Shown: piece by piece, positions 4,804 to 35,256 of the stretch | Position numbering within the stretch: the stretch's first letter is position 1 | How the letters are laid out: each line of letters starts with the position of its first letter | Assembly (NCBI GenBank): GCA_963849825.1 | Contig: CAWKIK010000003.1 | Coordinates: 592,813-656,812, forward strand | Length of the DNA: 64,000 nt | Source: an uncultured Gammaproteobacteria bacterium | Lineage (GTDB): Bacteria; Pseudomonadota; Gammaproteobacteria; JASBUN01 | Reading direction: 5' to 3' | Program-made: the position numbers and the translations under genes | The notes under the pieces: model-generated | What the model saw: only the letters and a program-made list of their open reading frames with translations | The model's database searches: none | What the model was told of the DNA's origin: nothing

Positions 4804-5409
4804 TTGAAGCGCCGCGACGCACGTGTAATGTCAACATTCGTCGCTCATGCCGTGGCGGCTTTCGCCATCAGCCGCGCGGCGCCGCAACGACTCGGGCGGC
4901 GACGCACTGTGGTCTGGGCCGCGATGATGTGCGCCTGCGCGCCCGACCTCGACGTCGTCGCCTTCGCCTTCGGTTTTCCCTATGGCCACGCCCTGGGACA
5001 CCGCGGATTCAGCCACTCATTGCTGTTTGCCATACTGCTGGCGGCGGTGGCCGCATTCTGGCTTGCACGCCGCGAGCGGCTCGGCCGCGGGCTCGGCTTT
5101 GGTTTGCTGTTACTGCTGTTCGTTGCCACCGCGTCCCACGGTCTGATTGATGCCATGACCAACGGCGGTCTGGGGGTTGGATTTTACATCCCCTTCGACA
5201 ACGCGCGTTATTTCCTGCCCTGGCGACCGTTGGTGGTCCCACCCCTCGGCGTGGCGCCGATGTTCAGCGCCTGGGGGTTCGCAGTGGTGCAAACCGAGCT
5301 CCTGTACATCGGATTGCCGAGTCTTGTAGTCAGCTTTGCCGCCTGGTCACTCCAGCGTAACCGTCAAAGCACGGTTTCGAAACCCTCGAATTGGGGCGGC
5401 CCGAGATAG
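4804..5409 (+). CDS. membrane-bound metal-dependent hydrolase, DUF457/YdjM family
   Basis: Polytopic small protein with conserved His/Asp pattern (HALGHRGFSHS, HGLIDAMTNGG). The start is uncertain: TTG at 4804 or ATG at 4828. Confidence 0.55.
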   Translation: MKRRDARVMSTFVAHAVAAFAISRAAPQRLGRRRTVVWAAMMCACAPDLDVVAFAFGFPYGHALGHRGFSHSLLFAILLAAVAAFWLARRERLGRGLGFGLLLLLFVATASHGLIDAMTNGGLGVGFYIPFDNARYFLPWRPLVVPPLGVAPMFSAWGFAVVQTELLYIGLPSLVVSFAAWSLQRNRQSTVSKPSNWGGPR

Positions 5410-8105: not shown

Positions 8106-8729
8106 TCAGCGCCTGGCGCTGAGTTCGGGCTTTTGCAGCGCCTTGTTCAGGTCGCCACGCAACTGAGCGAACACCTTCCGATAGGCGTCGATCGAGGATT
8201 GCCTTACCGCGGATTTCATCGCGAATGCGCCGCCCCAGAACATTTTTCCACCCTGCGTCGCCCCGGTTGCGGTGTAGCTGTGATCGAACAGCTGCTGATG
8301 GTCGGCGCTCAAGGCTACGGCGCGCACCATCACCGTGGCGTGGAAATCGGCGAATGTGTAACTGGGTACGGACAACTCCAGTATCAGCGGCCGGTCCTCG
8401 AGCTTGGCGTCGGCGACTGCATCGACGCAACGGTACTGCACAAACATTTGCGGCAACTCGATATCGGCGACCTGTTTGAGCATCAACCCCGGCTCGGCAT
8501 TCCAGCTGTGGGCGATGCCGGTCATGAAGGAACGGATCTCAACCTGATCGTGCAACGTCGCATCGTCGATCACCGCCACCACGCTGCGGCTGTAACGCTG
8601 AGTATCGATCGCGTAGTGAGCATCCTGAAATGCGACCTGGTGGGCGCACCCGCCCAGCAGTAGTGCAACGATCAACAAGGCAAGCAAAGCCAACCCGCCG
8701 CCGTTGCGCGGCCGAAAACGCCTACCCAT
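8106..8729 (-). CDS. hypothetical lipoprotein
   Basis: Signal peptide plus lipobox (LLGGC). No family recognised. Confidence 0.5.
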   Translation of the reverse strand: MGRRFRPRNGGGLALLALLIVALLLGGCAHQVAFQDAHYAIDTQRYSRSVVAVIDDATLHDQVEIRSFMTGIAHSWNAEPGLMLKQVADIELPQMFVQYRCVDAVADAKLEDRPLILELSVPSYTFADFHATVMVRAVALSADHQQLFDHSYTATGATQGGKMFWGGAFAMKSAVRQSSIDAYRKVFAQLRGDLNKALQKPELSARR

Positions 8730-9121
8730 GTGCCCCCCTTTTCTTGTCCGGTATAGAATCTCAGGGCTCAGAATAACCCTGCTCAGCCCGTGGTTCTAGG
8801 GCCGACGACATCAGCGGGCCGGTCCCGTCGATCGTTGGCGACCCGGTAATGCGGTTGCGCAGGCCCTTTGCCTTCTTCCAGACCCTGGTCATAAGCGGTG
8901 GTGCGGGCGCTCGTTACGAACAAGCGCAGGTACAGCCGGCGCGCTATTTCGCAACGTGCCGATGGCTTGGATCGGCGCGACCGGCCCGCCTCGGATACCG
9001 GGACCCCCCGATGACCCCCCTGGACCGCCGGTGGTCGAACGTTCCATGAAGCGCCCTACCGAACCTAATGGCGGCGTATCCGGTGGCGGTCCGGACAGGG
9101 TTCGCGGCCCCAGTCAGCGTT

Positions 9122-9150
9122 TTGACACTCGCCGCACAAATCTGTAACAT
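9122..9150 (+). promoter_or_regulatory. sigma-70-like promoter candidate (TTGACA, 17-bp spacer, TAACAT) in an unusually AT-rich spacer upstream of the DUF202 gene
   Basis: Perfect -35 at 9122-9127 and a 4/6 -10 at 9145-9150, followed by an AT-rich tract through 9177. Confidence 0.35.
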
Positions 9151-9259
9151 ATTATTTTCTATTCAATTTTTGTATCCGGGTTTCTATCCTGCTGTTAGCT
9201 GCGCCGTGCGCGACTGGGCGCCGGGATGGAAGCCGCAACTTTCGACACGGAGGGTAATT

Positions 9260-9613
9260 GTGATTGATGACCCCTATTCGGAGTTCAAGCGCGAACAAAT
9301 GATTCTGCGCGATTGGCTGGCATTGGACCGCACCGTCCTGGCCAACAAACGGACGTTTCTGGCCTACGGCCGTACTTCCATCGCCCTCGTCGTTCTGGGC
9401 TTGGCGTTGGTGAAATTTGTCCAGCACGACGCAATGGAAATCGCCGGCTTCTGTCTGATGGCCTTCGGAATCCTCACTTTCATTGTCGGTCTGCGCGAAT
9501 ACTGGACCAACCAGGCCCGTTTCAAGCGCCTGTTGGCGGTGGAAAAGCACATGGACCGCGAACGGGAAGACGGCGAGGCCGGTGGCGAAGCGGCTGACCG
9601 GCGCGTTTCCTGA
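9260..9613 (+). CDS. DUF202 (YidH-like) inner-membrane protein
   Basis: GTG start at 9260 preceded by GGAGGG. DUF202 motif MILRDWLALDRTVLANKRTFLAYGRTSIAL. The longer track ORF from 9068 is unsupported. Confidence 0.65.
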   Translation: MIDDPYSEFKREQMILRDWLALDRTVLANKRTFLAYGRTSIALVVLGLALVKFVQHDAMEIAGFCLMAFGILTFIVGLREYWTNQARFKRLLAVEKHMDREREDGEAGGEAADRRVS

Positions 9614-9684
9614 GTCCCGCGGCGCTCTGCGCAGCCGGCGCTTCCCGGTGCTGGCTGCGGGGCGCTGCACGGCTCTGTCCGATC

Positions 9685-9693
9685 CTGTATAAT
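9685..9693 (+). promoter_or_regulatory. extended -10 element (TGTATAAT) upstream of infA
   Basis: TGnTATAAT at 9685-9693. The -35 is weak. Confidence 0.25.
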
Positions 9694-9870
9694 AAGTCCA
9701 GATTTCGGCGTATTATCATTTCGAATCAGCAGGTTGAAGTTGGCTTTGGCCTGCCCCGCGCTGTTCTCAATTCGGTTCGTCTCATCATCTCGAGCTGAGT
9801 CCCACAACGACATGGGCATCGATGCGGCCCGGTTTGCCGGCGACCACGATGCTGGAGGAAATACGCAATT

Positions 9871-10092
9871 ATGGCGAAGGAAGAACTCATTGAAGTCGAA
9901 GGTACCGTAAGTGAGGTGCTACCCAACACCCGGTTTCGCGTAGAGCTGGAGAACGGCCATCAGGTCGCCGCGTACGCGTCCGGCAAAATGCGACGCTTCC
10001 GCATCCGCGTGGTCGCCGGAGACAAAGTCAAACTGGAAATGTCGCCCTACGATCTGAGCAAAGGCCGGATCAGCTTCCGCTACAAAAACTGA
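9871..10092 (+). CDS. infA: translation initiation factor IF-1
   Basis: 72 aa, near-identical to bacterial IF-1 ([13 protein letters not shown]...[16 protein letters not shown]...). Confidence 0.95.
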
Positions 10093-15087: not shown

Positions 15088-16008
15088 TTAGAAGTTTTCC
15101 TGTTCTACTTCGAGATACGTACGGGAAATGTTGCCGCCCATCATCTCATCGAAATACGGCAGTTGGCGCCACGCACTCAAATCCAGCCGTTCGCGTATCT
15201 CATAGGGTTGCAGACCTTCCTTGAAGCCGGCCTCGATACCGTCATACAGCGCCGACATGCGCGCATGCATTGCCGCGGCATCGACAGGCGTCATCAACGG
15301 CCCGTGGCCAGGCACGATGGTGTCGACATCGGTTCTGGTGATCTCGGCCAACGTCGCCACCCAGGATTTGACATGACCGTCACGGAAGTTCGGCATCATG
15401 CGATGCACCAGGATATCGCCGGCGATCAGCACCCGGTCGTCCGGCAACAGTATCATGAGGTCCCCGGGCGTATGCGAGCCGCTCGGCATCCACAGAACCA
15501 TATTCACTCCCGCCAATTGCACAGGGACACGGCTTTGCTGCGAAAAAGTACGCGTGGCCGGTACTGCGTGCGTATGAGGAAACCGTAGGCCAGTCAAATT
15601 CTTCACCAACGAAATCCATTCCTGTTCCGTCTCCACCACCAGTTCACGACATTTTTCGCTGCTGATGATCTGCGCTTCCGGAAATGCGCTATTGCCGAGG
15701 TGATGGTCGCCATGGTGGTGGGTATTGATGACATGGCGGACCGGCTTATCGGTGATACGCTCGATGGCGGCACGCAGATGGCGACCGATAGCATCGGTAA
15801 AGCCGGTGTCCACGACCACTGCGCTGCTATCGCCGACGATCAAAACACTGTTGACCATGTACCCCTGGTTCTCCGGCGACGGTATACCAACCGGACCCAG
15901 TAGGGCGTATATGCGGTCGTTGATTTTCTGAACCTGGGGCGCCGGCAGATCCGCAACTGCTGCCAGGCACCACAGCGCCGACAAAAACACAATGACGATT
16001 CGGTGCAT
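15088..16008 (-). CDS. secreted MBL-fold metallo-hydrolase
   Basis: HHHGDHHLGN motif. Start ATG at 16008 has a GGAG Shine-Dalgarno and gives a signal peptide MHRIVIVFLSALWCLAAVA. Confidence 0.75.
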   Translation of the reverse strand: MHRIVIVFLSALWCLAAVADLPAPQVQKINDRIYALLGPVGIPSPENQGYMVNSVLIVGDSSAVVVDTGFTDAIGRHLRAAIERITDKPVRHVINTHHHGDHHLGNSAFPEAQIISSEKCRELVVETEQEWISLVKNLTGLRFPHTHAVPATRTFSQQSRVPVQLAGVNMVLWMPSGSHTPGDLMILLPDDRVLIAGDILVHRMMPNFRDGHVKSWVATLAEITRTDVDTIVPGHGPLMTPVDAAAMHARMSALYDGIEAGFKEGLQPYEIRERLDLSAWRQLPYFDEMMGGNISRTYLEVEQENF

Positions 16009-16174
16009 GTCCCATCTCCGGTTAACGCTCAAGCTCAAATGCTAGCGCAAGTCGATGCCAAATTGCAGTTCAGGCGCCCGCCAGGTCATTTCGTCTCGCA
16101 GCGTCCGGACAGCCCCGGAGCATCGGGGCGCCGTGGTGTATAGTAGCGAGCCGCGATTATTCGTTAACAACCCC

Positions 16175-16909
16175 ATGCTGCACCTGGAACCACTACAGAT
16201 CGCCTTCGTCGTCGTACTGTTCGTATGGACCGGCTTCGTACGCAGTGGGCTCGGCTTCGGCGGCGCGGCATTGGGCCTGCCGTTGCTGCTTCTGATCGAC
16301 GGGCGGCCGCTGTTGTGGTTGCCGATCATCGGTGCCCACCTGCTGTTCTTTTCGGCTTTGACTCTGCGCACCCGGCTTCACAACGTACATTGGCGGTACC
16401 TGCACCGTTCCGCTGTCTATGTAATTCCGGGTGCGATCGTCGGCGTGTTGGGCCTGATCAATCTGCCTACCCGCTGGCTGCTGCTGTTCATTTATTCCAT
16501 CACTTTGTTTTACGCCGTGATCTGGCTGATGAACTGGGCTATTTACAGCGAACGCAACTGGGTGGACAAGGTACTGCTGGTTTTGGGCGGTTACATAGCC
16601 GGCACTTCATTGAGCGGCGCGCCGCTGATGGTTGCGGTCTACATGCGCAACGTACCCCTGGCTCAGTTGCGCAACACGCTGTTCGTGTTGTGGTTCATCC
16701 TGGTCAGTATCAAAATGAGCACCTTCGTTGCATTCGGCATCGACTTGCATCTGCTGACTGCGGTCGCCCTGCTTCCGGTGGCCGCCATCGGACATGTGCT
16801 CGGTCTGCGTGTGCACGACTCGATCATGAGCAACCAGCGCCTGTTCCAGCGCTGGATCGGCGCCGGGCTTATGATCGTCTGCCTGCTGGGTTTGGCGAAA
16901 CAATGGTAA
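16175..16909 (+). CDS. TSUP/TauE/SafE family sulfite/anion exporter
   Basis: Polytopic, with the GxGGG TauE motifs (GFVRSGLGFGGAAL). The likely start is the internal ATG at 16175. Confidence 0.7.
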   Translation: MLHLEPLQIAFVVVLFVWTGFVRSGLGFGGAALGLPLLLLIDGRPLLWLPIIGAHLLFFSALTLRTRLHNVHWRYLHRSAVYVIPGAIVGVLGLINLPTRWLLLFIYSITLFYAVIWLMNWAIYSERNWVDKVLLVLGGYIAGTSLSGAPLMVAVYMRNVPLAQLRNTLFVLWFILVSIKMSTFVAFGIDLHLLTAVALLPVAAIGHVLGLRVHDSIMSNQRLFQRWIGAGLMIVCLLGLAKQW

Positions 16910-20802: not shown

Positions 20803-21435
20803 TCACGCAGGGCCGTGCGGGGTCATGTTCATCTCGAACATGTGACCGTGCCCTTGCGTCCACTCGCGTGCCATCGCCCCCTGCAGTTGCGCACGGCTGT
20901 TGCCGTACTCCGCCCGCCGGTATTCGAATCCATGGGGTAACGAAACCTGCACCCGATGCGGCTCGCCGGTCACGGGATTGCGAATCGGCTCATCCGCCAC
21001 GTCGACCAGCCCCGGCACGCGGAAACTCCCCGTGCAGGCATCGATATCCGCCTCGAACTGGATCGGCGCGATCCGCGGCTCATGCATGGTTTCGAAGGTC
21101 GCGGCGAACACATTGAATACCGTTGCGCCGGGCTCGGTTTCCTGGCCAGAGAGGATGTTCAGCAAGGCGGCACGCTGCTCCTCTGTGGTGTTTTCATCGA
21201 GTATCGGTAACACCTGCCCGTGCCCTTCATGGATAGCGCCAGGCCACAAGGCGATCGCGGCGAACTTGGCGTTGTCCAAATCCACGCTGCCGAAATGTCC
21301 TGACTTGATGTGCATCGCGAACGCGGCGTGACAGTCGCCGTGGGAAGGTCGGCTGTTGAACTGGCAAGGACAACCCCAGTCGCAATTACACGCTGCTACG
21401 AATGGTCCGCGAATATTCCAATCTTTATAGGCCAT
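20803..21435 (-). CDS. DUF1326 domain protein
   Basis: Hallmark CNCDWGCPCQF motif. Confidence 0.7.
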   Translation of the reverse strand: MAYKDWNIRGPFVAACNCDWGCPCQFNSRPSHGDCHAAFAMHIKSGHFGSVDLDNAKFAAIALWPGAIHEGHGQVLPILDENTTEEQRAALLNILSGQETEPGATVFNVFAATFETMHEPRIAPIQFEADIDACTGSFRVPGLVDVADEPIRNPVTGEPHRVQVSLPHGFEYRRAEYGNSRAQLQGAMAREWTQGHGHMFEMNMTPHGPA

Positions 21436-21508
21436 TGCTCTACCTCCGTAGTGCAGATTTCGGTCGTTACAGGCGGCGTACGCCGTCCACGGGTAACGGC
21501 CTGGCGTG

Positions 21509-22279
21509 TCAGATCAAACCGCCGATGATCGTCGCACCCCACACCAACAGCGCGACGCCCGCGATCCGACCCAGCCACTGCCCGGCGGGCAGTACTTTTT
21601 CCAATAGCACAAACGCTGCCAAAACCGCTGCCCAGAGCAGGTCCATCACGCCGCTGACGAACAGCAGCAACATCAACACCCAGCAGCAACCGACGCAATA
21701 CGCGCCGTGTACCAGGCCGAGACGCAAAATGCCGCGCAGCCCGGGCCGCCAATTTGCCAACAGAAACATCAACGGCGAGCGGCAATGCGCCAGACAGCGG
21801 GACTTCAGCGGCGTCCATTGGTATATTCCCGCCGCCATCAAGACCACGGCCGCGCTCACCGGCCGCGTCAAGCCGTCCTCGGAGAGCAAACGTGCGCTCT
21901 GCAGGCTGCCCTGCAACAGCGTCGCTACGGCGGAGAACGCGGTCCAGATGATGAGATAGCCGAGGATGAAGAACGCAGTTCTGATGTTGGAATTACCGGG
22001 CGCCCGCGACACCAGCAACACAACGGGCGCCGCGCTGGGCAGCATCATGCCGGCCATCATCACCGTCCACATGAGAAAAGCCAGCCAAGCGGTGGTAAAG
22101 CTCCAGGGTTCGGGCACAGACGACATACCCGACATCCCGTCCGCACCCGACATGCCGCGGGATATGTCGAGCAGATACACCCAGGCCAGTATCGTCAACG
22201 CGAGCAACGCGCCGAGCACCAGCCATGTCTGCCAGCGCGCACCGGGAGCCAGCCGGACCATGGTTGCAGGTCGGGACAT
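21509..22279 (-). CDS. DUF2182 metal-binding integral membrane protein (usual partner of DUF1326)
   Basis: Start ATG at 22279 with a GAAGGAG Shine-Dalgarno. Polytopic protein. Confidence 0.65.
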   Translation of the reverse strand: MSRPATMVRLAPGARWQTWLVLGALLALTILAWVYLLDISRGMSGADGMSGMSSVPEPWSFTTAWLAFLMWTVMMAGMMLPSAAPVVLLVSRAPGNSNIRTAFFILGYLIIWTAFSAVATLLQGSLQSARLLSEDGLTRPVSAAVVLMAAGIYQWTPLKSRCLAHCRSPLMFLLANWRPGLRGILRLGLVHGAYCVGCCWVLMLLLFVSGVMDLLWAAVLAAFVLLEKVLPAGQWLGRIAGVALLVWGATIIGGLI

Positions 22280-22540
22280 TGCCGCCGCTCCTTCGCTCAA
22301 TGGTGAACGCAACGTCGAGAGCCGACGGGCCACCGCGGAAAAATTCCAGAGGGCCTGAGTATAGCAGTGGTCCGGCGGTTGTGAGGCCGGCGCACGGCGT
22401 AACGCCATACCACGGGCGACAGGAATTGGTTTGCGAGGTACTGTATGGTCGTTGAGAACTTTTGCCGCCGCGGTTTGCCGCGGTGCAAAAAAACGGGGCG
22501 GTACACACCGCCCCGTTCTTATTGCGCGTAGTTTTAACGG

Positions 22541-23245
22541 CTACTCGTAGTAGTAATAGGCATAAGGCTGATAGATCAACTGCGGCTGCAGCTTGGTGGA
22601 ATACGGCAGCCCCTGGTAATAGCGCCAGCCGTCCTTGTCCTGATCCGTGATCTGTCCGTCATGATTCAAGTCCAGCGGCCCATCCAGATTGAAATCGACT
22701 TTGGTCTGGCCGACGAAGCCCTGCCAAATGTTGCGCACGTGGGTGTAGCCCGCAGCGGTCAGCAGGTTAGCCGCCAGCACGCTGCGGTGCCCGGTTCTGC
22801 AAAGGGTGTAGATCGCCGTGTCCTTATTCGGGAACGCTTGCTCGACCGCAGCGACGAATTCGGCATCCGGTTGCGGTACCCTGGCGCCTCCGCCGATACA
22901 CGCGCCGTCCGGAGAACGTTCCGTGCAGGGTTGATAAATGAAAGGATACGGAATGTTGGTTGCACCCTCAGGGTGGCCGGCAACGTATTCGGGAATGCTG
23001 CGCACGTCGACGATCACCGCGCGGGGCTTACCGTGCTTTGCACCCTGATGATGACCATGATCCCAGCCATCGTCATCCACGGCTCGCACGTAGGCTTCCG
23101 CGGCACTGATCTCGGAATGGTAGTTATGGGGCAGGCAATAGCGGTTGGTCGGCTCGGCGCAATCGTCCGCCAGCGCCGGGACCGCGGCCACTGCCAGAAA
23201 CGCTCCGACAATGACGATGCTTGTAGCGTTTTTTGCTTTTCTCAC
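22541..23245 (-). CDS. secreted rhodanese-domain sulfurtransferase with Tyr-rich C-terminal tail
   Basis: Signal peptide. Rhodanese core with active-site loop CRTGHRS. C-terminal tail ...IYQPYAYYYYE. Confidence 0.75.
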   Translation of the reverse strand: MRKAKNATSIVIVGAFLAVAAVPALADDCAEPTNRYCLPHNYHSEISAAEAYVRAVDDDGWDHGHHQGAKHGKPRAVIVDVRSIPEYVAGHPEGATNIPYPFIYQPCTERSPDGACIGGGARVPQPDAEFVAAVEQAFPNKDTAIYTLCRTGHRSVLAANLLTAAGYTHVRNIWQGFVGQTKVDFNLDGPLDLNHDGQITDQDKDGWRYYQGLPYSTKLQPQLIYQPYAYYYYE

Positions 23246-23657
23246 AATTGACTCCTTCAGGGATTGCTCGCATTGTTGTTAGAGTTGATCCAGCGGATCA
23301 AAAAATAAGCTAGTGAATTTCACCCATGGCCACAATGGGCATATGCACAGTCGATGTTCGCGCCGTTTTGCGGTGAAGCTGTCCGCCCCGGCGCGAAAAG
23401 CGGGGTGCGTCCGCACACCACGGGTGCTACCACGCTCGAAATATTTCACAGGATGAAAACGGCGACCGAAAGGGTGCCCGGGGCCTGGTGATGCTTGATC
23501 GTGCGGCTTGGGTATTTGTGCCCGAATGATGCAGGCACGCGACTGCGGCTGCGCACCGTGAACCGGGACGCAGCGCAGATGGAGAGGCGAACCAATAGCG
23601 ATTTTTTCGTTTAGGACTACTGCAACTGTTATTGCAGACGTTGGTTCGCGATCATGT

Positions 23658-23876
23658 CTACCGAGGGTTGGAACCGGACGGCTTGCAGGTATTGATGCCG
23701 AGAATCGAGTTCGCGGGACAGTATCCGACGATCGCCGTCAGCAGCGCAATCGCGGCGATCACGAACACGACGATTTGCCAAGCCGCATTCAGCGGTGCAA
23801 AAAATCCAACCAGCAGCAACACGACACCGAGCACGATGCGCGCAGTGCGGTCCATACCGCCAACATTGCATTTCAT
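23658..23876 (-). CDS. DUF2892 (YgaP-like) small membrane protein
   Basis: Start at 23876 with an AGAGGAA Shine-Dalgarno. Motif GMDRTARIVLG. Confidence 0.6.
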   Translation of the reverse strand: MKCNVGGMDRTARIVLGVVLLLVGFFAPLNAAWQIVVFVIAAIALLTAIVGYCPANSILGINTCKPSGSNPR

Positions 23877-24011
23877 ATCGCATTCCTCTGTGAACAACGG
23901 TTCATCGAGCGTCGCCGATGCGAGGCTCGTTACCGCTACAGTCTAGCAGCGCAAATCCACATCTGGGGCGGCCTGGTGCGCTCGCCAGGATCTGGCGGTG
24001 CAGGTTCCGGC

Positions 24012-24353
24012 TCAGCGCGTGTGCCGGGCATAAGTCTGCTTATCCATATCCACAACTTCCACTGTGACCGATTCGGCATCCCAGCCCTGGTCGCACAATG
24101 CGGTGAGCACCGCGCCGCTGAGAAGCCGTTTCTGGGTCGCGTCTCGACCGCTGTGGATACGCAACTGCGCATGCACGAACGGCGCACGACTCGTCCCGGT
24201 ACGATAGAACTCCACCGGTATGGCGCGCGTTCGGATATGACTTTGTTCGAAAAGGCCGGTTGCATAAGCAGCGTCGTGCACGGCGTCCAGCATTTGCGTA
24301 ACCTGGTCTGCGGTGGCCAACTCCTGGGCGTATTCGATGATCAAGTGAGGCAT
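24012..24353 (-). CDS. 5-carboxymethyl-2-hydroxymuconate isomerase (CHMI) family protein
   Basis: N-terminus MPHLIIEYAQ matches E. coli HpcD MPHFIVEC. Length fits. Confidence 0.7.
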   Translation of the reverse strand: MPHLIIEYAQELATADQVTQMLDAVHDAAYATGLFEQSHIRTRAIPVEFYRTGTSRAPFVHAQLRIHSGRDATQKRLLSGAVLTALCDQGWDAESVTVEVVDMDKQTYARHTR

Positions 24354-24647
24354 GCAGGACTCTTGTCATTGCGCCGGCGTACTGAAACCGATCCCCGGGC
24401 CGGCACCCCGGTGGCTGCAAGTCTACCGTAACCGGCGCGACAGCGTTGGCAGGCGGCGCTGTCAGGCGCTACATGCCGGCCGCTCCACCACTGGGCCAGT
24501 ATGATGCGGACACAGCCCGTGGATTTTCCCCACCAGAATCGATGCCCTTCGCGTATCTGAGCGGGCGCCGATCGGATCGCCGTGCCGTCTGGTAAGCACT
24601 GCCCGCCACGCCACGCAGACTGCCATTCGCGCCGCAACGCCTTGCGC

Positions 24648-26252
24648 TCAAGGAACCCGAGTCGCGCTGTTGGCGTGCGGCGGACGAAATGCCGCCGCGT
24701 TGATACCAAGAGACTTGAGCTTCATGTGCACCGCGCGCGGCGTCACCGACATTTCGCGGGCTACGGCAGTGACATTGCCATTGAACTTGCGTAGGGCCGC
24801 GACAATGAGATTCGCCTCGGTCTCGCGCAGCGCTTGACGCCGTGCGTCACGCAGGTTCGCCGGCGCGTGCGCGTAAGCCGTAGGCGCGTCGATCTTCAGA
24901 TCATCGATCACAACGCCGCGTGCGAATAAAAACGCGCGCTCCAACACGTTCTCCAGTTCCCGCAAGTTGCCGGGCCAATCGTAACGCAGCAGCTTCGACC
25001 AGGCTCTGTTGTTGAATGTTTTCGGAGCAGTGGCGTATTGCTCTGCCAGGCGACCCATAAAGTGGTGAACCAGGGGCGACAGATCGTCGGGGCGCTCGCG
25101 CAGCGGCGGTATCTGAATCGGCACTACATTGAGGCGATAGAAGAGATCGCGCCGGAAACGGCCTTCGGCGACGGCGCGCTCCAGATCCTGATTGGACGCG
25201 GCGACGATGCGCACGTCTGTAGCCAAGGTCTGCCGGCCGCCGACCCGTTCGAACTGCCCCTCCTGCAATACGCGCAGCAATCGCGCTTGTGCCGATACAG
25301 GCAGGCAGTCGATTTCATCGAGAAACAGCGTGCCGCCGTTGGTACGTTCGAAATAACCGTGATGGACGTCGTAGGCATCCGTGAACGCGCCTTTTTCGTG
25401 GCCGAACAAAGTGCTTTCGATCAAATTTTCGGGAATCGCACCACAATTCACCGCCAACAACTCCCGGCCGGTACGATCACTCATGGCATGAATGGCGCGT
25501 GCGATCACTTCCTTGCCGACTCCGGTCTCGCCGCTGATCAATACCGTGGCCCGGGTCGGCGCCACCACCTCGACCGCCTCCAGCACGTTCCGCATTGCCG
25601 CGGATTCTGCGATCACCGCCGGCGCCGGATGGGCCGGGCGCGCCCCTCCGGGAATCGCCGGACACCACACCTCGCGCAGTTTCGCTTCCACACGCGCACG
25701 CACGGTCGTCGACGCCGAGCGGGATACGATCTTGTCGCCGTCGCAGTGATACTCGTCGCCCGGCTTGTTCTCCGCCGTGGCCGGGTCGATGTATACGTAA
25801 ACTTCACAGCAATCGTCATGGGTTGCGATGCGCTTGCGCAGTTCGACCTTACCGTAGCCGAAATTGCGCGCCGCGATGCCGCCGAATACGCTTGCCGTCA
25901 TGCGGCACAGTTCCGGCGCAGCGCGCACGTTGTCGCCGAACGGGCAGCAACTGTTGCGCACCCGGATGACGCCCGGTTCAGATGAGGTGCGGGCGAAATT
26001 TCCGCCGATCTGGTTCTTTAAGGTGACAATCAAACTGGCATATTGATCGGGCGTTATGGGCCCGCTGCCTGAATAACCTAAGCACGACCGGGCACCTTCC
26101 TCCAGGCACTGGCTGGCCGCCAAGCCGACCCGTTCGACGTATTCCTGAGTACCGCTGCCGTCCCCCGCCGCAGTGGTTACGCGCACGCTTTCGGCGATGA
26201 ACGCTTGCAGAAAAGTGATCGGATCGAGGGGCTTGCGGGAATCGCTCGACAT
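24648..26252 (-). CDS. sigma-54-dependent Fis-family transcriptional activator with Cys-rich N-terminal sensory domain
   Basis: AAA+ motifs [15 protein letters not shown] and [13 protein letters not shown], plus a C-terminal helix-turn-helix. The N-terminal ~200 aa carries many Cys (SCCPFGD, DDCCEVY), as in V4R/FisR-type sensors. Confidence 0.85.
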
Positions 26253-26374
26253 CTGCGCACCCCCTTTTGGTTCAGTACGACTTCATCAATATAGCCGATC
26301 GACGGCCGGCGCGGGGCATGGCAAACGTGGAGCCCCTCACCGAAACCATCGGTGAGGGGCAGTTTACCAGCGGT

Positions 26375-26602
26375 TCAATGACAGCAAGGGCAGCCCGGGC
26401 CGTGCCTCGCAGGTTGCGGTTCCAGGCTCTGCGCGGCCATTTCCCGCCCTCGGGCCATATAGCCGTGCACTGCCGGAGCTGCGAGGAAGACACGTCTCGC
26501 CTCGGCACCGCACCGCGGGCACGGCGGCGCAACTTCGCTCATGCCGTGACGGGCCTCGAAGCACGTATCACAACGGCCACAACGGTAATCATACGATGGC
26601 AT
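26375..26602 (-). CDS. FmdB-family zinc-ribbon protein
   Basis: MPSYDYRCGRCD...CPRCG...CPCC. Start at the internal ATG at 26602. Confidence 0.6.
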   Translation of the reverse strand: MPSYDYRCGRCDTCFEARHGMSEVAPPCPRCGAEARRVFLAAPAVHGYMARGREMAAQSLEPQPARHGPGCPCCH

Positions 26603-26620
26603 GGCAGACTCCAAGGACGC

Positions 26621-27274
26621 TCAAGCCCAACGCGCCGGCTGCGCCGCTTTGACGCCGAACTGCTTGGCGGTCACGTCGGTCCGGGCACGCTTTTCAGCCT
26701 CTTGGGTGGGCGGCCGCAACCGCCGGGTCTCCACTTCCCAAATCCAACCGCTTACGGTTACGTCCTTGGGAATCAGGGGGTGGTTCTTGAACGCTTCCAC
26801 GGTTTTCATGCACGCTTGATCAACGTCATCCATCATGCCGATCCATTTCGCAAACGCGCCCTTGTCGAGCTTGAGTTCGGGCAGGGACGGATCGAGCGTC
26901 ACTTCGTCGGGATCGATGCCTTTCTTGCGCAGTGCCTCCACCAGATCGTCGGCGTTGGCCGACAACATGCCGCACTGGGTGTGCTGGACGATGACGATTT
27001 CCTTGGTGCCGAAGAAATTGCAAGTCAGCATGGCCGAGCGCACCGCATCGTCGGTGACGATACCGCCGGCGTTGCGAAAACAGTGCGCGTCTCCGCCGCC
27101 GACCGGCGAATCCACGCGGATGCCCAACGCCTCGTCCACGGGCAGGCGCTCGTCCATGCACGCCAGGACCCACAGACGCCGATTGTTGGGTCCATCTGCG
27201 CCGTAACGCCGCCGGGTGGCCCAGTGATCATAGGCTTTGGATCGGCTTTCCAATTCTTCTTTCAAAGTTGCCAT
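26621..27274 (-). CDS. beta-class carbonic anhydrase, clade D (Rv1284/COS-hydrolase-like)
   Basis: CMDER, FRNAGGIVTDD and HTQCGM zinc-ligand motifs. C-terminal ~40-aa extension. Confidence 0.8.
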   Translation of the reverse strand: MATLKEELESRSKAYDHWATRRRYGADGPNNRRLWVLACMDERLPVDEALGIRVDSPVGGGDAHCFRNAGGIVTDDAVRSAMLTCNFFGTKEIVIVQHTQCGMLSANADDLVEALRKKGIDPDEVTLDPSLPELKLDKGAFAKWIGMMDDVDQACMKTVEAFKNHPLIPKDVTVSGWIWEVETRRLRPPTQEAEKRARTDVTAKQFGVKAAQPARWA

Positions 27275-27544
27275 TAACGTCTCCTCCGGATGTAATCATG
27301 TGTACGCCGCAGCGCGGCATGTTGTCGAAGCAGCTTGTGTGCCAGACAGGTACCGCCAATAAATACAACGGCTTGGCGGAAGCGGAGAATGCGTATGGAA
27401 GCCCGGATACGGGGGCGCACACCTAAGCGCCTGTGACAGCGTCGATTTCGGTCCGGGAAGCAATAGTTCGCATTGTGAAGATTGGCTTCCCGGTGGGCCC
27501 GTCGGTGCAGCCGGTGTACCCGGCGGGCCGGCGCGGCCCGAGCC

Positions 27545-27560
27545 TGGTGAAGCGAGCGCA
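27545..27560 (+). promoter_or_regulatory. weak sigma-54 (-24/-12) promoter candidate upstream of the persulfide dioxygenase gene
   Basis: TGGTGA-N5-GCGCA has the correct GG..GC spacing but poor consensus. Speculative. Confidence 0.15.
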
Positions 27561-27642
27561 AACCCCGCGCGCACGTGCTGCGACCGAGGTCTCGCCTGCT
27601 AGACTGCGAAGCAGTCCACCACCATGAAAGGGAATCTCAGGC

Positions 27643-28404
27643 ATGATTTTTCGACAGCTTTTCGAGCCCGTTTCCAGCACTTATACCTATCTGCTCGGCT
27701 GCGAAGATACCGGCCAGGCGCTGTTGATCGACCCGGTGTTGCCGACCTGGCAGCGGGACCTGGAAACCGTGAACGATCTAGGCCTTCGGCTGGCCTATAC
27801 CCTGGACACACACATCCACGCCGATCACATTACCTCGGCGTCCACTCTGCGCCGCGAAGCTGGCAGCCGCATTGCCCATCCGGCGATCGACAAGCTCGAG
27901 TGCGTCGACATCGGGATCGAGGAAGGCACTCCCTTTGAAATGGGCAGCGTTCGGCTGGACCCGTTGTTCACGCCCGGACATACCGACGGCCATCATGCCT
28001 ACCGCATCCGCGACCAGCTCAGCGACCGTGTGTTCAGCGGTGACGCCTTACTGATCGAAGCCTGTGGTCGCACCGACTTCCAAAACGGCGACGCGCCTAC
28101 GCTCTATCGCAGCATCCATGAAAAGTTATTTTCCCTGACGGACGACGCCCTGGTCTTCCCTGCTCATGACTACGAGGGCCGCCATGTGACCAGCATCGGT
28201 CAGGAGAAGAGCCGCAACCCGCGTTTGGGTAACAACAAGCCCATGGACGAATTCGTCAAGATCATGGAGGAAATGGATTTGCCGTACCCGAAGTTCATCG
28301 ACCATGCGGTGCCCGGCAATCGTCAGTGCGGGGTCTGCCCGCCGGATCTGCCCAACCACCTGCAAGAATATTGCGAAGCATCCGGAGACAGTCGCCAGGG
28401 TTGA
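27643..28404 (+). CDS. persulfide dioxygenase (ETHE1-like MBL-fold sulfur dioxygenase)
   Basis: N-terminus MIFRQLFEPVSSTYTYLLGCEDTGQALLIDPV...HIHADHITSA closely parallels human ETHE1 (RQMFEPVSCTFTYLLGD...HCHADHITG). Confidence 0.85.
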   Translation: MIFRQLFEPVSSTYTYLLGCEDTGQALLIDPVLPTWQRDLETVNDLGLRLAYTLDTHIHADHITSASTLRREAGSRIAHPAIDKLECVDIGIEEGTPFEMGSVRLDPLFTPGHTDGHHAYRIRDQLSDRVFSGDALLIEACGRTDFQNGDAPTLYRSIHEKLFSLTDDALVFPAHDYEGRHVTSIGQEKSRNPRLGNNKPMDEFVKIMEEMDLPYPKFIDHAVPGNRQCGVCPPDLPNHLQEYCEASGDSRQG

Positions 28405-28431
28405 GCCCGGCGGCAAACGCCGGCATCGCGA

Positions 28432-29205
28432 TCAACCCGCCGGCTTGCGGATCAAATCCCGAGCGCCGGAAACAGAAAGTCTGCCGAAATAGGGTTTGAT
28501 CTCCTCGAACAAATACAGCAGACCATCGTAGGTTTGGGCATCAGCAAGCGTTGCGGAACCCGGCACCAATGTCGCATTTTCGAGCGCGAGAGTAGCGGCC
28601 GATCCCGCTCCAAATGTGATTTCGATATGGGTAGCATGTTCCCGCGCAGTCCAACCGAACCGCTTGGCGACCATATTGGCGACGGTCGCCACTTTGGGCT
28701 TTTCGTTGCGGGAATGCAGTTCGCCATCCCAGTGCAGCGTCGCACCGCGCCCGCTTGTGTCCTGCCACCAATACACGATGCTCAGGATCCAACCGCACAA
28801 GTGCAGCAATCCCAGGTAACCCAGGGCGAACACGAACAGCACTGCGATCAGGTGATTGGTTTCCGGTTTGCCGATACCGGCAAGCAACAAGGCCAACGCG
28901 ATCCCCGCCGTGACCAGGCACACATCCGCCGGTACCATGGCGACGATCAGCGCCTTCTGTCGACCTGGGCGCGGGGGTCGCGGGGCAGAGCCGAGCCTGC
29001 CGATCAAAGCTAGTTTGACCGCGGCGAGGTATGCGGACAACGCGACCATGATCGCCAAAAGATTGGACCCGTCATGCGCTATCGGCAGTGTCAGCTTTGT
29101 GCCTTGATACAAAGCCACAACACACACGATGCAGCCCGCGCCGAGCAGGCACAGTGATAATTTCCTCGTATACCACGCCACCATAAATCGCCCTCCGTGT
29201 GCCAC
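28432..29205 (-). CDS. hypothetical membrane protein (4 TM plus soluble C-terminal domain)
   Basis: ORF only. No family recognised. Confidence 0.4.
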   Translation of the reverse strand: MAHGGRFMVAWYTRKLSLCLLGAGCIVCVVALYQGTKLTLPIAHDGSNLLAIMVALSAYLAAVKLALIGRLGSAPRPPRPGRQKALIVAMVPADVCLVTAGIALALLLAGIGKPETNHLIAVLFVFALGYLGLLHLCGWILSIVYWWQDTSGRGATLHWDGELHSRNEKPKVATVANMVAKRFGWTAREHATHIEITFGAGSAATLALENATLVPGSATLADAQTYDGLLYLFEEIKPYFGRLSVSGARDLIRKPAG

Positions 29206-29474
29206 CGATGACCGGACGTTTGCTGTACGTTTGCGCGTGAACCGATCATAACTCGTCGCAATCTCCTTACGTACTGTCGAGATTTACACGAACGGCCGCC
29301 GCTGTTGCGATCCATCGCTGTTGTCGAAATTGCGAGCGCATCGCAGGCGCACGAAGTGCCGTATGCACCTCGGTCGTTGGTTACACTTGTCCCCCCGGAC
29401 ACCACGAGTCGACCCGGCGCGCACTCACGGGTGCGTGGGATGGTCAACACCGGGTCAACCCGGAGGAGGCCACT

Positions 29475-29713
29475 ATGGACACCTATATCGTTCGGCGTCG
29501 GCGCGGGTAGGCGACGAGGAGATGCCCGAGGAAGTTCGCTGGCTCCGCTCTTATGTCATCGACGAGGGAGACGGAAAGCTCGGCACGGTGTGCGTCTATC
29601 AGGCAGCAGGCCCCGACGCACTGCAGGAACATGCGCGCCGCGCAAGCCTGCCGGCGGATGAGGTTTTACCGGTGGTGGACACTTTGATCGTACGCGGCGA
29701 CCCGACGAAATAA
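29475..29713 (+). pseudogene. DUF4242-family gene with an apparent -1 frameshift and internal shortening
   Basis: ATG at 29475 has a GGAGGAGG Shine-Dalgarno and encodes MDTYIVRRRRG*. The DUF4242 core (VRWLRSYV...VCVYQAAGPDALQEHARRASLPADEV) continues in the -1 frame from about 29500. Confidence 0.45.
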
Positions 29714-34620: not shown

Positions 34621-35256
34621 GTGCATAAGAAAATATCGAAACCTATCCTGCTTTTCTGTGGAACGTTCGTGCTTGGTTTGCTGGGTTCGTCCGCGTTCGC
34701 CGACAACGACCACGACCGCGGGGGGAACAATCAATGCCCCGTTGGCCTGGTTTCAGGCCTGACTTTGGATCAGGAGTTCGGCGCGGGTGCAAGCGATCTG
34801 ACCCGCTGCATCAAACGCCGTCATCACGTCCAGGTGGTGGTTGAAATCAATCGTTATTGCCGCAGCCAGACTGCGACGCCAGACGCGGGAGGCAATTGCG
34901 CCGGCGGCCCCGATGCGCTTGGCAACATGGTGAACATGATTCAGGACTACGAAGTCACCTATGGCATGAAGCAGGGGCGCGACTATGAAATGGTCGCAGT
35001 GGTGCATGGCGGCGGCGGTCGCCTGCTACTGAACAACTCTGTACCCAACGCTTACGCCAGCCAGGTCCAAAGCCTGATGAGCCAAGGTGTGAAATTCTAT
35101 TTCTGCCAGAATACAGTGCGCGGCTTCATGCACAACGGCATGATCAGCCCTGGCAACGCCGTAAACGAAGTCATCCCGGGCGTCCAGTTCGTCACCGCCG
35201 GCTTTACAGCGCTGTCGGACTTCCAGAGCTTGGGCTGGACCCAGGTCACTCCTTGA
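34621..35256 (+). CDS. secreted DsrE/DsrF-like family protein
   Basis: GTG start at 34621 after AGGAG. Signal peptide. VVHGGGGRLL and FYFCQNTVRG motifs resemble the DsrE fold. Confidence 0.45.
   Translation: MHKKISKPILLFCGTFVLGLLGSSAFADNDHDRGGNNQCPVGLVSGLTLDQEFGAGASDLTRCIKRRHHVQVVVEINRYCRSQTATPDAGGNCAGGPDALGNMVNMIQDYEVTYGMKQGRDYEMVAVVHGGGGRLLLNNSVPNAYASQVQSLMSQGVKFYFCQNTVRGFMHNGMISPGNAVNEVIPGVQFVTAGFTALSDFQSLGWTQVTP

Follow-up and report, generated by a model that had tools for sequence, protein, structure and literature searches.

A putative CS2/COS-hydrolysing gene cassette with its own sigma-54 activator in an uncultured gammaproteobacterium and in nitrifying, methane-oxidising and sulfur-oxidising bacteria

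Carbon disulfide (CS2) and carbonyl sulfide (COS) are abundant sulfur gases of both natural and industrial origin. A stretch of 64,000 nucleotides from an uncultured gammaproteobacterium (contig CAWKIK010000003.1; the whole stretch is referred to below as the window) encodes, on its minus strand, an enzyme of the β-carbonic anhydrase (β-CA) fold, a small FmdB-type zinc-ribbon protein, and a sigma-54 activator. We lean towards reading this region as an inducible CS2/COS-hydrolysing cassette under the control of its own sigma-54 activator, a view drawn from sequence comparison. An earlier reading of the same DNA (the original prediction) had placed four genes here, the three above and a divergently transcribed gene for an ETHE1-like persulfide dioxygenase (PDO), and had proposed that they form a module responding to sulfide or COS. 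All four are real open reading frames (ORFs) at the coordinates that it gave, and the fmdB and β-CA genes do lie upstream of the activator gene on the same strand.

In the proposed mechanism, the zinc enzyme encoded at 26621-27274 would break CS2 down, with COS as an intermediate, to CO2 and two molecules of H2S, with little or no hydration of CO2, and its gene would be transcribed from a sigma-54 promoter at 27329-27344. The activator encoded at 24648-26252 is predicted to bind tandem GAAG-N5-CTTC palindromes at 27457-27489 and to switch this promoter on. By analogy with related activators, its MetOD1/V4R-type domain, which carries a cluster of three cysteines together with Glu51, would restrain the ATPase until a signal is perceived; the signal would most likely be CS2 or COS itself, or an adduct that these gases form at the cysteine or metal site. 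FmdB would be an obligate accessory, perhaps a supplier of metal to the enzyme or a co-sensor. The H2S released would pass to sulfide-oxidising enzymes, represented here by the adjacent, separately transcribed PDO and by a nearby rhodanese; in other lineages, sulfide:quinone oxidoreductase (SQR), PDO, and TauE appear to be built into the same sigma-54 operon as the hydrolase.

The enzyme and its place among CS2 hydrolases

The first gene of the cassette (26621-27274, minus strand) starts at an ATG preceded by a strong Shine-Dalgarno sequence (GGAGGAG) and encodes a protein of 217 amino acids, which matches the Pro_CA family weakly (E 1.8e-8). CS2 hydrolases are distinguished within this fold by the conversion of CS2 and COS to H2S without CO2 hydration and by their assembly into octamers or hexadecamers. 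Among all solved structures, the best relative of the window enzyme is the CS2 hydrolase of Acidianus sp. A1-3 (3TEN/3TEO; E 7.5e-55, 189 bits): residues 5-191 align with residues 3-187 of the archaeal protein, and the two are 54% identical over 179 positions. The COS hydrolase (COSase) 3VQJ scores 72 bits, with an alignment that covers mostly residues 31-114, and ordinary clade-D CAs (3las, 5ztp, Cab, and Rv1284) score 70-82 bits. The CS2-hydrolase clade is narrow, since just 29 of 1.84 billion cluster representatives reach E≤1e-30; right below these, full-length scores fall to about 100 bits or less, as is usual for ordinary clade-D CAs.

The same grouping was obtained in a neighbour-joining tree (a maximum-likelihood tree was not built) of 61 sequences. 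These were the window protein, cluster representatives, family members known by name, and parts of four PDB proteins taken from HMMER alignments, with the COSase entered as the COSase-like representative P0324. The window protein and the Acidianus enzyme fall into one clade with 98 of 100 bootstrap replicates, and P0324, Cab, 3las, and 5ztp lie outside it; hence, the phylogeny that the original prediction had proposed as a check shows no grouping with CO2-hydrating clade-D enzymes. A Phe-Phe motif that has been named as characteristic of CS2 hydrolase (PMC6382920) is present as F87-F88, which corresponds to F77/F78 of the Acidianus enzyme. It is invariant in 40 family members and occurs in 14 of the 19 members of the CS2-hydrolase clade versus 2 of 43 sequences outside. 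The zinc ligands C39, H98, and C101 and the D41-R43 dyad are kept and align with the Acidianus enzyme and with all references. The N-terminal arm is alignable (residues 5-31 with residues 3-27 of the Acidianus enzyme), and the C-terminal tail differs; in work by Smeulders from 2011, the N- and C-terminal arms of CS2 hydrolase are said to close the entrance used in CAs and to build the ring and catenane.

On these grounds, the enzyme is assigned to the CS2-hydrolase clade rather than to the ordinary clade-D CAs or the COSases. The original prediction had proposed that it releases H2S and had pointed to a core shared with Rv1284 and the COSase of Thiobacillus; an H2S-releasing lineage is supported, and the match is to CS2 hydrolase, not to the COSase. 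The COSase of Thiobacillus thioparus THI115 (3VQJ) is a clade-D β-CA relative that also releases H2S and has low CA activity, and the FRNAGG/HTxCGM core cited in the original prediction is indeed common to both proteins; however, the COSase has Leu-Leu in place of Phe-Phe and falls outside the clade. The only characterised CS2 hydrolases are those of Acidianus and Acidithiobacillus thiooxidans, and their CA activity is negligible or absent (PMC12035519, PMC8209446). A protein of Acidithiobacillus sp. is 77% identical to the window enzyme and is encoded within the same three-gene cassette. To our knowledge, neither a dedicated sigma-54 regulator nor an FmdB partner is known for the characterised CS2 hydrolases.

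A conserved gene triad

A genome scan with the enzyme, limited to one genome per species, returned 165 relatives; the genome counts given below use the best 80, which are 77-99% identical. About a third of these (approx. 26, tallied from record titles) belong to Nitrosomonas, Nitrosospira, or Nitrosovibrio, 10 to the Chromatiaceae, 6 to Thiobacillaceae, Sulfuricella, or Sulfuriferula, 3 to methanotrophs, and 3 to Nitrospirota; the rest include Thiohalobacter, Pseudonocardia, Acidiphilium, and many unclassified metagenome-assembled genomes (MAGs). The enzyme gene is approx. 99% identical to that of one gammaproteobacterial MAG (L001).

The hydrolase, FmdB, and activator genes constitute a conserved triad. 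In tblastn searches of the 80 genome loci, an FmdB match adjoins the hydrolase in 69 and an activator match is found in 63; by clustering of ORFs, full-length activator orthologues adjoin the hydrolase in 58. All-against-all clustering of the neighbouring ORFs in the 80 loci revealed no further broadly conserved gene. The position of the activator varies with lineage: in gammaproteobacteria and sulfur oxidisers, it follows the hydrolase on the same strand, and in Nitrosomonadaceae it is divergent and lies upstream. Outside the same-species locus, identity to the window proteins is 77-89% for the enzyme, 43-66% for FmdB, and 45-68% for the activator. The association was also recovered from the opposite direction, when metagenome contigs were scanned with the sensor-domain alignment alone and the best 80 loci were taken. 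All 80 are of the activator type, and among the 60 metagenome loci with at least 1.5 kb of upstream sequence, 56 carry the hydrolase, nearly all of them with FmdB.

The triad is also carried by a 349-kb plasmid of Methylobacter sp. YRD-M1 (L081; NZ_CP091425.1, 229200-241787), where it lies between IS3 and IS1 transposases. This placement between insertion sequences and the near-uniform identity of the enzyme across phyla agree with mobility. The plasmid-borne cassette has the order hydrolase, zinc ribbon, ZIP, activator, cupin, and a gene for an IscB RNA-guided endonuclease and an AbiE toxin-antitoxin pair are found nearby. A MAG labelled Bacteroidetes bacterium SZAS-11 (L052) has the cassette layout of a Nitrosomonas locus (L044) and identical promoter and upstream activator sequences; this contig is probably mis-binned.

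Some hydrolase genes stand alone. In three Nitrospirota (L027, L017, and L066) and in Pseudonocardia (L078), the hydrolase gene is 78-81% identical to that of the window, and neither FmdB, nor an activator, nor a sigma-54 promoter was found around it; the downstream flank is short in L017 and flanks are ample in L027 and L078. Regulation of the hydrolase must differ there. As far as we know, Actinobacteria lack sigma-54. The neighbours of the stand-alone genes in the Nitrospirota loci offered no functional hint.

Promoter and upstream activator sequence

A sigma-54 (-24/-12) promoter, TGGCACacaagCTGCt, is located on the minus strand at 27329-27344 (read from 27344 to 27329), its first base 70 nt upstream of the hydrolase ATG. 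It has one mismatch to TGGCAC-N5-TTGCW and is one of two such sites in the 64 kb. Of 76 related loci, 65 have an equivalent site, defined by at most one mismatch to TGGCAY-N5-TTGC, ahead of the hydrolase (66 of 77 with the window included); no such site was found in the 11 loci that have no activator match, several of which are short contigs. The original prediction had pointed to the intergenic region 27275-27642 as the place for such an element on either strand; the minus strand has one ahead of the hydrolase gene, and none faces the PDO.

Upstream of the promoter lies an upstream activator sequence (UAS) made of two GAAG-N5-CTTC palindromes 20 bp apart, GAAGcaataGTTC at 27457-27469 and GAAGattggCTTC at 27477-27489, which are situated 113-145 bp upstream of the -24 element. 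The pair is unique in the window (0.02 expected by chance), and an independently detected inverted repeat coincides with it. Of 77 sequences, 49 have at least two copies of the motif ahead of the hydrolase, versus 18 of 1540 shuffles. Like the promoter, the palindromes are conserved between genera. Most of the multi-copy sequences are pairs 20 bp apart, and their distance to the -24 element is fixed within each clade, at -145/-125 in the clade of the window and about -97/-77 in Nitrosomonadaceae. A pattern with a 6-nt spacer had no match in the upstream regions, and the aligned regions show a 5-nt spacer. By analogy with known systems, tandem palindromes ahead of the promoter have the classic layout of an enhancer-binding-protein operator.

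The activator and its sensor domain

The activator (24648-26252, minus strand) has 534 amino acids and matches Sigma54_activat (E 2.7e-68), AAA_lid_14, and HTH_8. Its AAA+ sigma-54 interaction domain spans residues 214-380 (25113-25613), the Fis-type helix-turn-helix (HTH) DNA-binding domain spans residues 475-513 (24714-24830; HTH_8, PF02954, E 4e-8), and the N-terminal sensor domain comprises residues 1-200 (25653-26252). Within the sensor, residues 65-151 match the Pfam family MetOD1 (PF18546, E 1.4e-10) of the V4R-HNOB superfamily. Homologues of the sensor include stand-alone MetOD1 proteins, which on the plasmids examined are encoded beside other signalling proteins, and fusions to HATPase domains. 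When the PDB was searched with a profile of these homologues (alignment A1), the HATPase domain of the fused relatives accounted for most of the result, which was uninformative on the sensor. An AlphaFold2 (AF2) model of the sensor, built from the alignment (predicted local distance difference test, pLDDT, 82.6), retrieved TRAPP Bet3 (E 2e-4), H-NOX, MopR (5kbh), and PoxR (5frv) with Foldseek; similarity to MopR and PoxR is moderate, with a TM score of about 0.5 and E of about 0.02. Profile match and model together identify the sensor as a MetOD1-type domain of the HNOB/V4R/Bet3 fold. As the activator has no match to the Pfam families XylR_N and V4R at E≤0.01, the sensor represents a sister domain family rather than a member of the XylR/DmpR group.

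In V4R-type activators such as XylR, DmpR, MopR, and PoxR, the sensor represses the AAA+ ATPase until the pathway substrate is bound. The window activator resembles them in several respects: a small-molecule sensor of the HNOB/V4R superfamily is followed by an AAA+ domain and a Fis-type HTH, the activator is encoded beside the pathway gene that it would control, and the -24/-12 promoter has a tandem palindromic UAS ahead of it, at a distance of about 110-150 bp. The three-cysteine cluster of PoxR and MopR binds a structural zinc. Galperin et al. (PMC5847659) independently relate MetOD1 to the HNOB and V4R domains and point out that three highly conserved cysteines form a cluster in MetOD1 as they do in the V4R domains of PoxR and MopR. 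Unlike MopR and PoxR, which respond to aromatic ligands and match XylR_N/V4R, the cassette activator has a MetOD1 domain and presumably responds to a triatomic sulfur gas.

In alignment A1, which includes distant MetOD1 proteins, E51, C103, and C116 are invariant and C149 is nearly so. Among 59 full-length activator orthologues, C103 is kept in 56, C149 in 57, and each of the three cysteines, C116 included, in 56-57. In the window, the three codons lie on the minus strand at 25944-25946 (C103), 25905-25907 (C116), and 25806-25808 (C149). The original prediction had drawn attention to two cysteine pairs, SCCPFGD (residues 101-107) and DDCCEVY (residues 146-152), as signs of a thiol sensor. Both motifs are present, but one cysteine per pair is conserved (C103 and C149); the second members, C102 and C148, are kept in 10 and 7 of the 59 orthologues. 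C116 had not been mentioned there. At the level of the fold, the N-terminal domain aligns with sensors of non-thiol ligands, an outcome that the original prediction had itself listed as speaking against it; the three conserved cysteines still leave thiol or metal chemistry possible.

The comparison with FisR made in the original prediction does not extend to the sensor. FisR, known from Cupriavidus pinatubonensis and Acinetobacter baumannii, is likewise a sigma-54 activator tied to sulfide-handling genes. The A. baumannii protein, characterised in PMC7315123 and taken here as the activator divergent from PDO, SQR, TauE, and Hsd (locus L084), is 44% identical to the window activator over residues 217-504 (AAA+, lid, and HTH); BLASTP gave no significant match upstream of residue 217. 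The N-terminal domain of this FisR has approx. 120 residues, no Pfam match, and no MetOD1. Because the alignment begins only within the AAA+ domain, the regulator is classified as a sigma-54 activator with a V4R-superfamily sensor and not as a FisR homologue. The targets differ as well, FisR acting on pdo-sqr and the present activator presumably on a hydrolase gene.

Degenerate loci also bear on the role of the regulator. Activator pseudogenes with an in-frame TAG after MetOD1, identical in two independent assemblies (L093, 5001-6617; L094, 1641-3257), were found, as were activator fragments alone in two methanotroph-like genomes (L091, 5001-5591; L175, 6001-7071). None of these four loci has a hydrolase gene near the decayed activator. 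That loci without the hydrolase carry decayed activators suggests that the purpose of the regulator is tied to the enzyme.

The FmdB protein and metal-related neighbours

The FmdB zinc-ribbon gene lies at 26375-26602 on the minus strand (PF09723, E 1.7e-11; TIGR02605, E 2.3e-12). A mechanical ORF call covers 26375-26614 and gives 79 amino acids with a TTG start at 26614; in 38 aligned orthologues, however, the conserved start is the Met of MP(S/T)YDY, and the ATG at 26602 is the more likely true start. Conserved features of the protein are CxxC...CxxC, PAVHGxMARGRE, and a C-terminal HGPGCxC. On account of the paired CxxC motifs and the cysteine-containing tail, FmdB may be a metal-delivery factor or a co-sensor.

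Several genes with metal-related annotation recur around the cassette. Genes for DUF1326 and PpoB2 (PF09948, 'copper chaperone') are found near it in lineages that are not related. Those of the window are located at 20803-22408 on the same (minus) strand, past the activator by about 2.2 kb; in a Methylobacter (L061), they follow hydrolase, FmdB, DUF938, and a short-chain dehydrogenase/reductase gene on the same strand (8571-9940). They also stand beside a decayed activator in two loci from which the hydrolase has been lost (L091, 2071-3437; L175, 2922-4287), and in L091 a sigma-54-like site at 4930 (minus strand) is placed in front of them. Moreover, separate lineages have metal transporters of three unrelated families inside the cassette or directly behind it: ZIP in methanotrophs (L047, 9117-10013; L081, 5049-5894), Nramp in Acidithiobacillus (L088, 9169-10419), and MerC in a Pseudomonadota MAG (L092, 3819-4415). 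These transporters suggest that metal supply matters for the cassette.

Connection to sulfide oxidation

The PDO gene of the window (27643-28404, plus strand) encodes a protein of 253 amino acids with the metallo-beta-lactamase fold. Its full-length matches to 8zbd (E 2e-92, residues 1-246), 4ysb (E 1.1e-68), and human ETHE1 (4chl; E 8.5e-64) and the HxHxDH motif, present as THIHADH, identify it as a typical ETHE1-type (type I) enzyme by sequence; the gene is divergently oriented, but the protein is not a divergent member of its family. It adjoins the cassette in 1 of the 80 genome loci, which is from the same species, and other PDO-like genes occur in the flanks of some others. The window PDO is outside the core cassette and is likely to be a downstream partner. 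The circuit outlined in the original prediction, in which the PDO would be expressed together with a sulfide-releasing β-CA, is supported as far as sulfide-oxidation genes recur with the cassette elsewhere; co-regulation of the window PDO itself is not supported, as no sigma-54 site faces it.

In other genomes, the connection is closer. Orthologues of the window PDO (62-63% identity) lie beside the cassette in two metagenome loci (L160 and L171). In L171, the genes for hydrolase, FmdB, SQR, and TauE stand behind a UAS pair and a -24/-12 site that is perfect, and the PDO (62% identical) is divergent from the activator. In nine Nitrosomonadaceae-type loci, hydrolase and FmdB are followed by SQR on the same strand, mostly with TauE and in four cases with PDO. 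Nitrosospira briensis (L039) has the order hydrolase, FmdB, type II PDO (E 6e-111 to 4ysk), SQR (E 4e-98 to human SQOR), and TauE, with small gaps. Such repeated recruitment of non-orthologous sulfide-oxidation genes is as expected if the product of the enzyme is H2S.

The activator may also act beyond the cassette. In three loci (L131, 4594-7993; L137; L159), a second sigma-54 promoter with a GAAG-N5-CTTC pair at 20-bp spacing precedes an operon of OmpW, DsrE, TusA, and an SQR-like protein; this gene order, which also includes an unknown protein of 202 amino acids, was taken from the homologous locus L093 (6634-9890), whose SQR-like protein matches SQOR with E 3e-36. A similar promoter and palindrome pair precede an SQR-like gene in L124 (7246-8726). 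These sites imply a larger activator regulon in some lineages. On the Cupriavidus and Burkholderia plasmid loci examined, no sigma-54 activator adjoins the PDO homologues, and the neighbouring regulators are of the ArsR, AraC, and LysR types; of the plasmid-borne orthologues of the window PDO, the closest one examined is that of Cupriavidus campinensis (64% identical), whose operon has a regulator of the ArsR/SmtB family nearby.

Weighing the proposal and its alternatives

Several observations weigh against an inducible CS2/COS hydrolase in the window. The bacterial enzymes differ from the Acidianus protein at three places: Phe96 is replaced by Ala106 in the window enzyme, a conserved 6-residue loop (D-S/T-P-V-G-G-G) precedes the DAH motif, and a conserved 26-residue C-terminal tail (EKRARTDVT..QFGV...QP.RW) extends beyond residue 191, the last two being absent from the archaeal enzyme. 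The tail is what the original prediction had described as an extension of about 40 amino acids. Because of these differences, substrate specificity may differ from that of Acidianus. The AF2 model of the enzyme (pLDDT 59) is too poor for the substrate tunnel to be inspected, as all homologues used were more than 76% identical. On the regulatory side, the sigma-54 contact loop of the window activator is GAFTDA (residues 286-291, 25380-25397), a form shared by 8 of 59 orthologues, whereas the remaining 51 have the canonical GAFTGA, and the -12 element of the window promoter reads CTGC rather than TTGC. Finally, the three sensor cysteines could equally sense sulfide, polysulfide, or a metal, and the DNA examined around some activator relatives (L124 and L121) contains no hydrolase. 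One of them, L124, appears to control an SQR-like operon alone, which would fit sensing of the product.

If the product were sensed, the activator would perceive sulfide, persulfide, or polysulfide via its conserved cysteines, functionally like FisR and as part of a general reactive-sulfur response, and would turn on the hydrolase, plus sulfide-oxidation genes where present. We consider this main alternative, which comes close to the original prediction, unlikely, though several lines of evidence speak for it. The three cysteines are conserved in the sensor, the inferred regulon of several lineages takes in SQR, PDO, TauE, DsrE, and TusA, and L124 combines an intact activator with a UAS and promoter before an SQR-like gene and has no hydrolase within 10.6 kb. 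Furthermore, the layout in ammonia oxidisers, a divergent activator followed by hydrolase, FmdB, PDO, SQR, and TauE, parallels the fisR-pdo-sqr-tauE arrangement of A. baumannii (PMC7315123). Nevertheless, the sensor has no homology to that of A. baumannii FisR, vicinal cysteine pairs are not conserved, and the cysteine cluster of MetOD1 recurs in the V4R domains of PoxR and MopR, which are phenol sensors (PMC5847659). Most loci would control hydrolase and FmdB alone, and induction of a sulfide producer by sulfide would be a positive feedback of no obvious benefit; in the window, moreover, the PDO is faced by no sigma-54 promoter. An inducer of the CS2/COS type, rather than sulfide, thus seems the better candidate for the cassette.

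It is very improbable that the enzyme is an ordinary CO2-hydrating β-CA that provides autotrophs with bicarbonate or removes it, with sigma-54 control by inorganic carbon or nitrogen status. All public annotations of the homologues do read carbonic anhydrase, the catalytic Cys-His-Cys and Asp-Arg residues are as in β-CAs, and the carriers are mostly autotrophs, namely nitrifiers, sulfur oxidisers, and methanotrophs. Against this stand the 98 of 100 bootstrap replicates that group the enzyme with CS2 hydrolase and away from characterised CAs, the Phe-Phe motif and the alignable N-terminal arm, the lack of CA activity in characterised members of the lineage (PMC8209446, PMC12035519), and the recurrent operons with SQR, PDO, and TauE, genes that have no role in carbon supply.

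Least credible is a metal-homeostasis cassette, in which the three-cysteine sensor would bind zinc or a thiophilic metal, FmdB would buffer or deliver it, and the CA-fold protein would be metal-dependent or metal-storing: the ZIP (L047 and L081), Nramp (L088), and MerC (L092) genes in or beside the cassette of separate lineages, the FmdB zinc ribbon with its HGPGCxC tail, and the recurrent DUF1326/PpoB2 pair point that way, but the core cassette of most loci has no transporter, the most conserved component is the enzyme (77-89%) with a complete catalytic site, and the transporters could just as well supply the cofactor of a zinc enzyme that is made in large amounts.

Other features of the window

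A rhodanese gene at 22541-23245 (PF00581, E 7e-14), named in the original prediction, is confirmed; its product carries a signal peptide, the active-site loop CRTGHRS, and a C-terminal motif that is rich in Asp, resembles DxNxDGxIxD, and is of the calcium-binding type. A separate YgaP-like transmembrane gene (PF11127) lies just upstream on the minus strand, and the pair spans 22541-23897. The TauE-family gene reported nearby is also present (E 2.8e-15), with an ORF that spans 16055-16909 instead of 16175-16909, and the DsrE-like protein at 34621-35256 is recovered as a weak match (E 7.5e-5). A metallo-beta-lactamase protein of 316 amino acids at 15088-16038, divergent from the TauE-family gene, was considered as a second PDO and rejected, as its best solved relatives are 8d2z and class B beta-lactamases. 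Scans of 24400-28600 gave no sigma-70 promoter and a number of terminators below chance, and no Rfam element was detected in 24000-29500.

Significance

Bacterial CS2 hydrolases of A. thiooxidans and V4R-type sigma-54 activators are already known. A literature search found no work linking CS2/COS hydrolases to a sigma-54 activator, FmdB, nitrifiers, or methanotrophs (Smeulders 2013, on the A. thiooxidans enzymes, was outside this search), and a cassette with its own sigma-54 activator appears to be undescribed. By its title, a 1990 study by Hyman and colleagues (ref. 25 in PMC7170481) reportedly dealt with the inhibition of ammonia monooxygenase (AMO) by CS2 in Nitrosomonas europaea. More tentatively, and with less confidence than we place in the cassette itself, the triad might be a mobile CS2/COS-inducible module for resistance and scavenging, in which MetOD1 would be the first dedicated transcriptional sensor of CS2/COS; such a module would guard the copper monooxygenases of ammonia and methane oxidisers, AMO and particulate methane monooxygenase (pMMO), against CS2 and feed H2S to the energy metabolism of sulfur oxidisers. 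If so, the DUF1326/PpoB2 genes and the inserted metal transporters would be signs that metal centres are repaired after attack by chelators derived from CS2.

Promoter and operator, conserved as a pair, could serve as a ready-made biosensor chassis for CS2/COS, and the cassette offers a defined experimental system for the MetOD1 sensor domain and for the FmdB zinc-ribbon family. If the predicted activity holds, surveys that count β-D "CA" genes misassign a distinct function. Moreover, nitrifiers and methanotrophs would then own an inducible defence against a known nitrification inhibitor, and the COS/CS2 sinks of soil and wastewater would include organisms that have not been counted so far.

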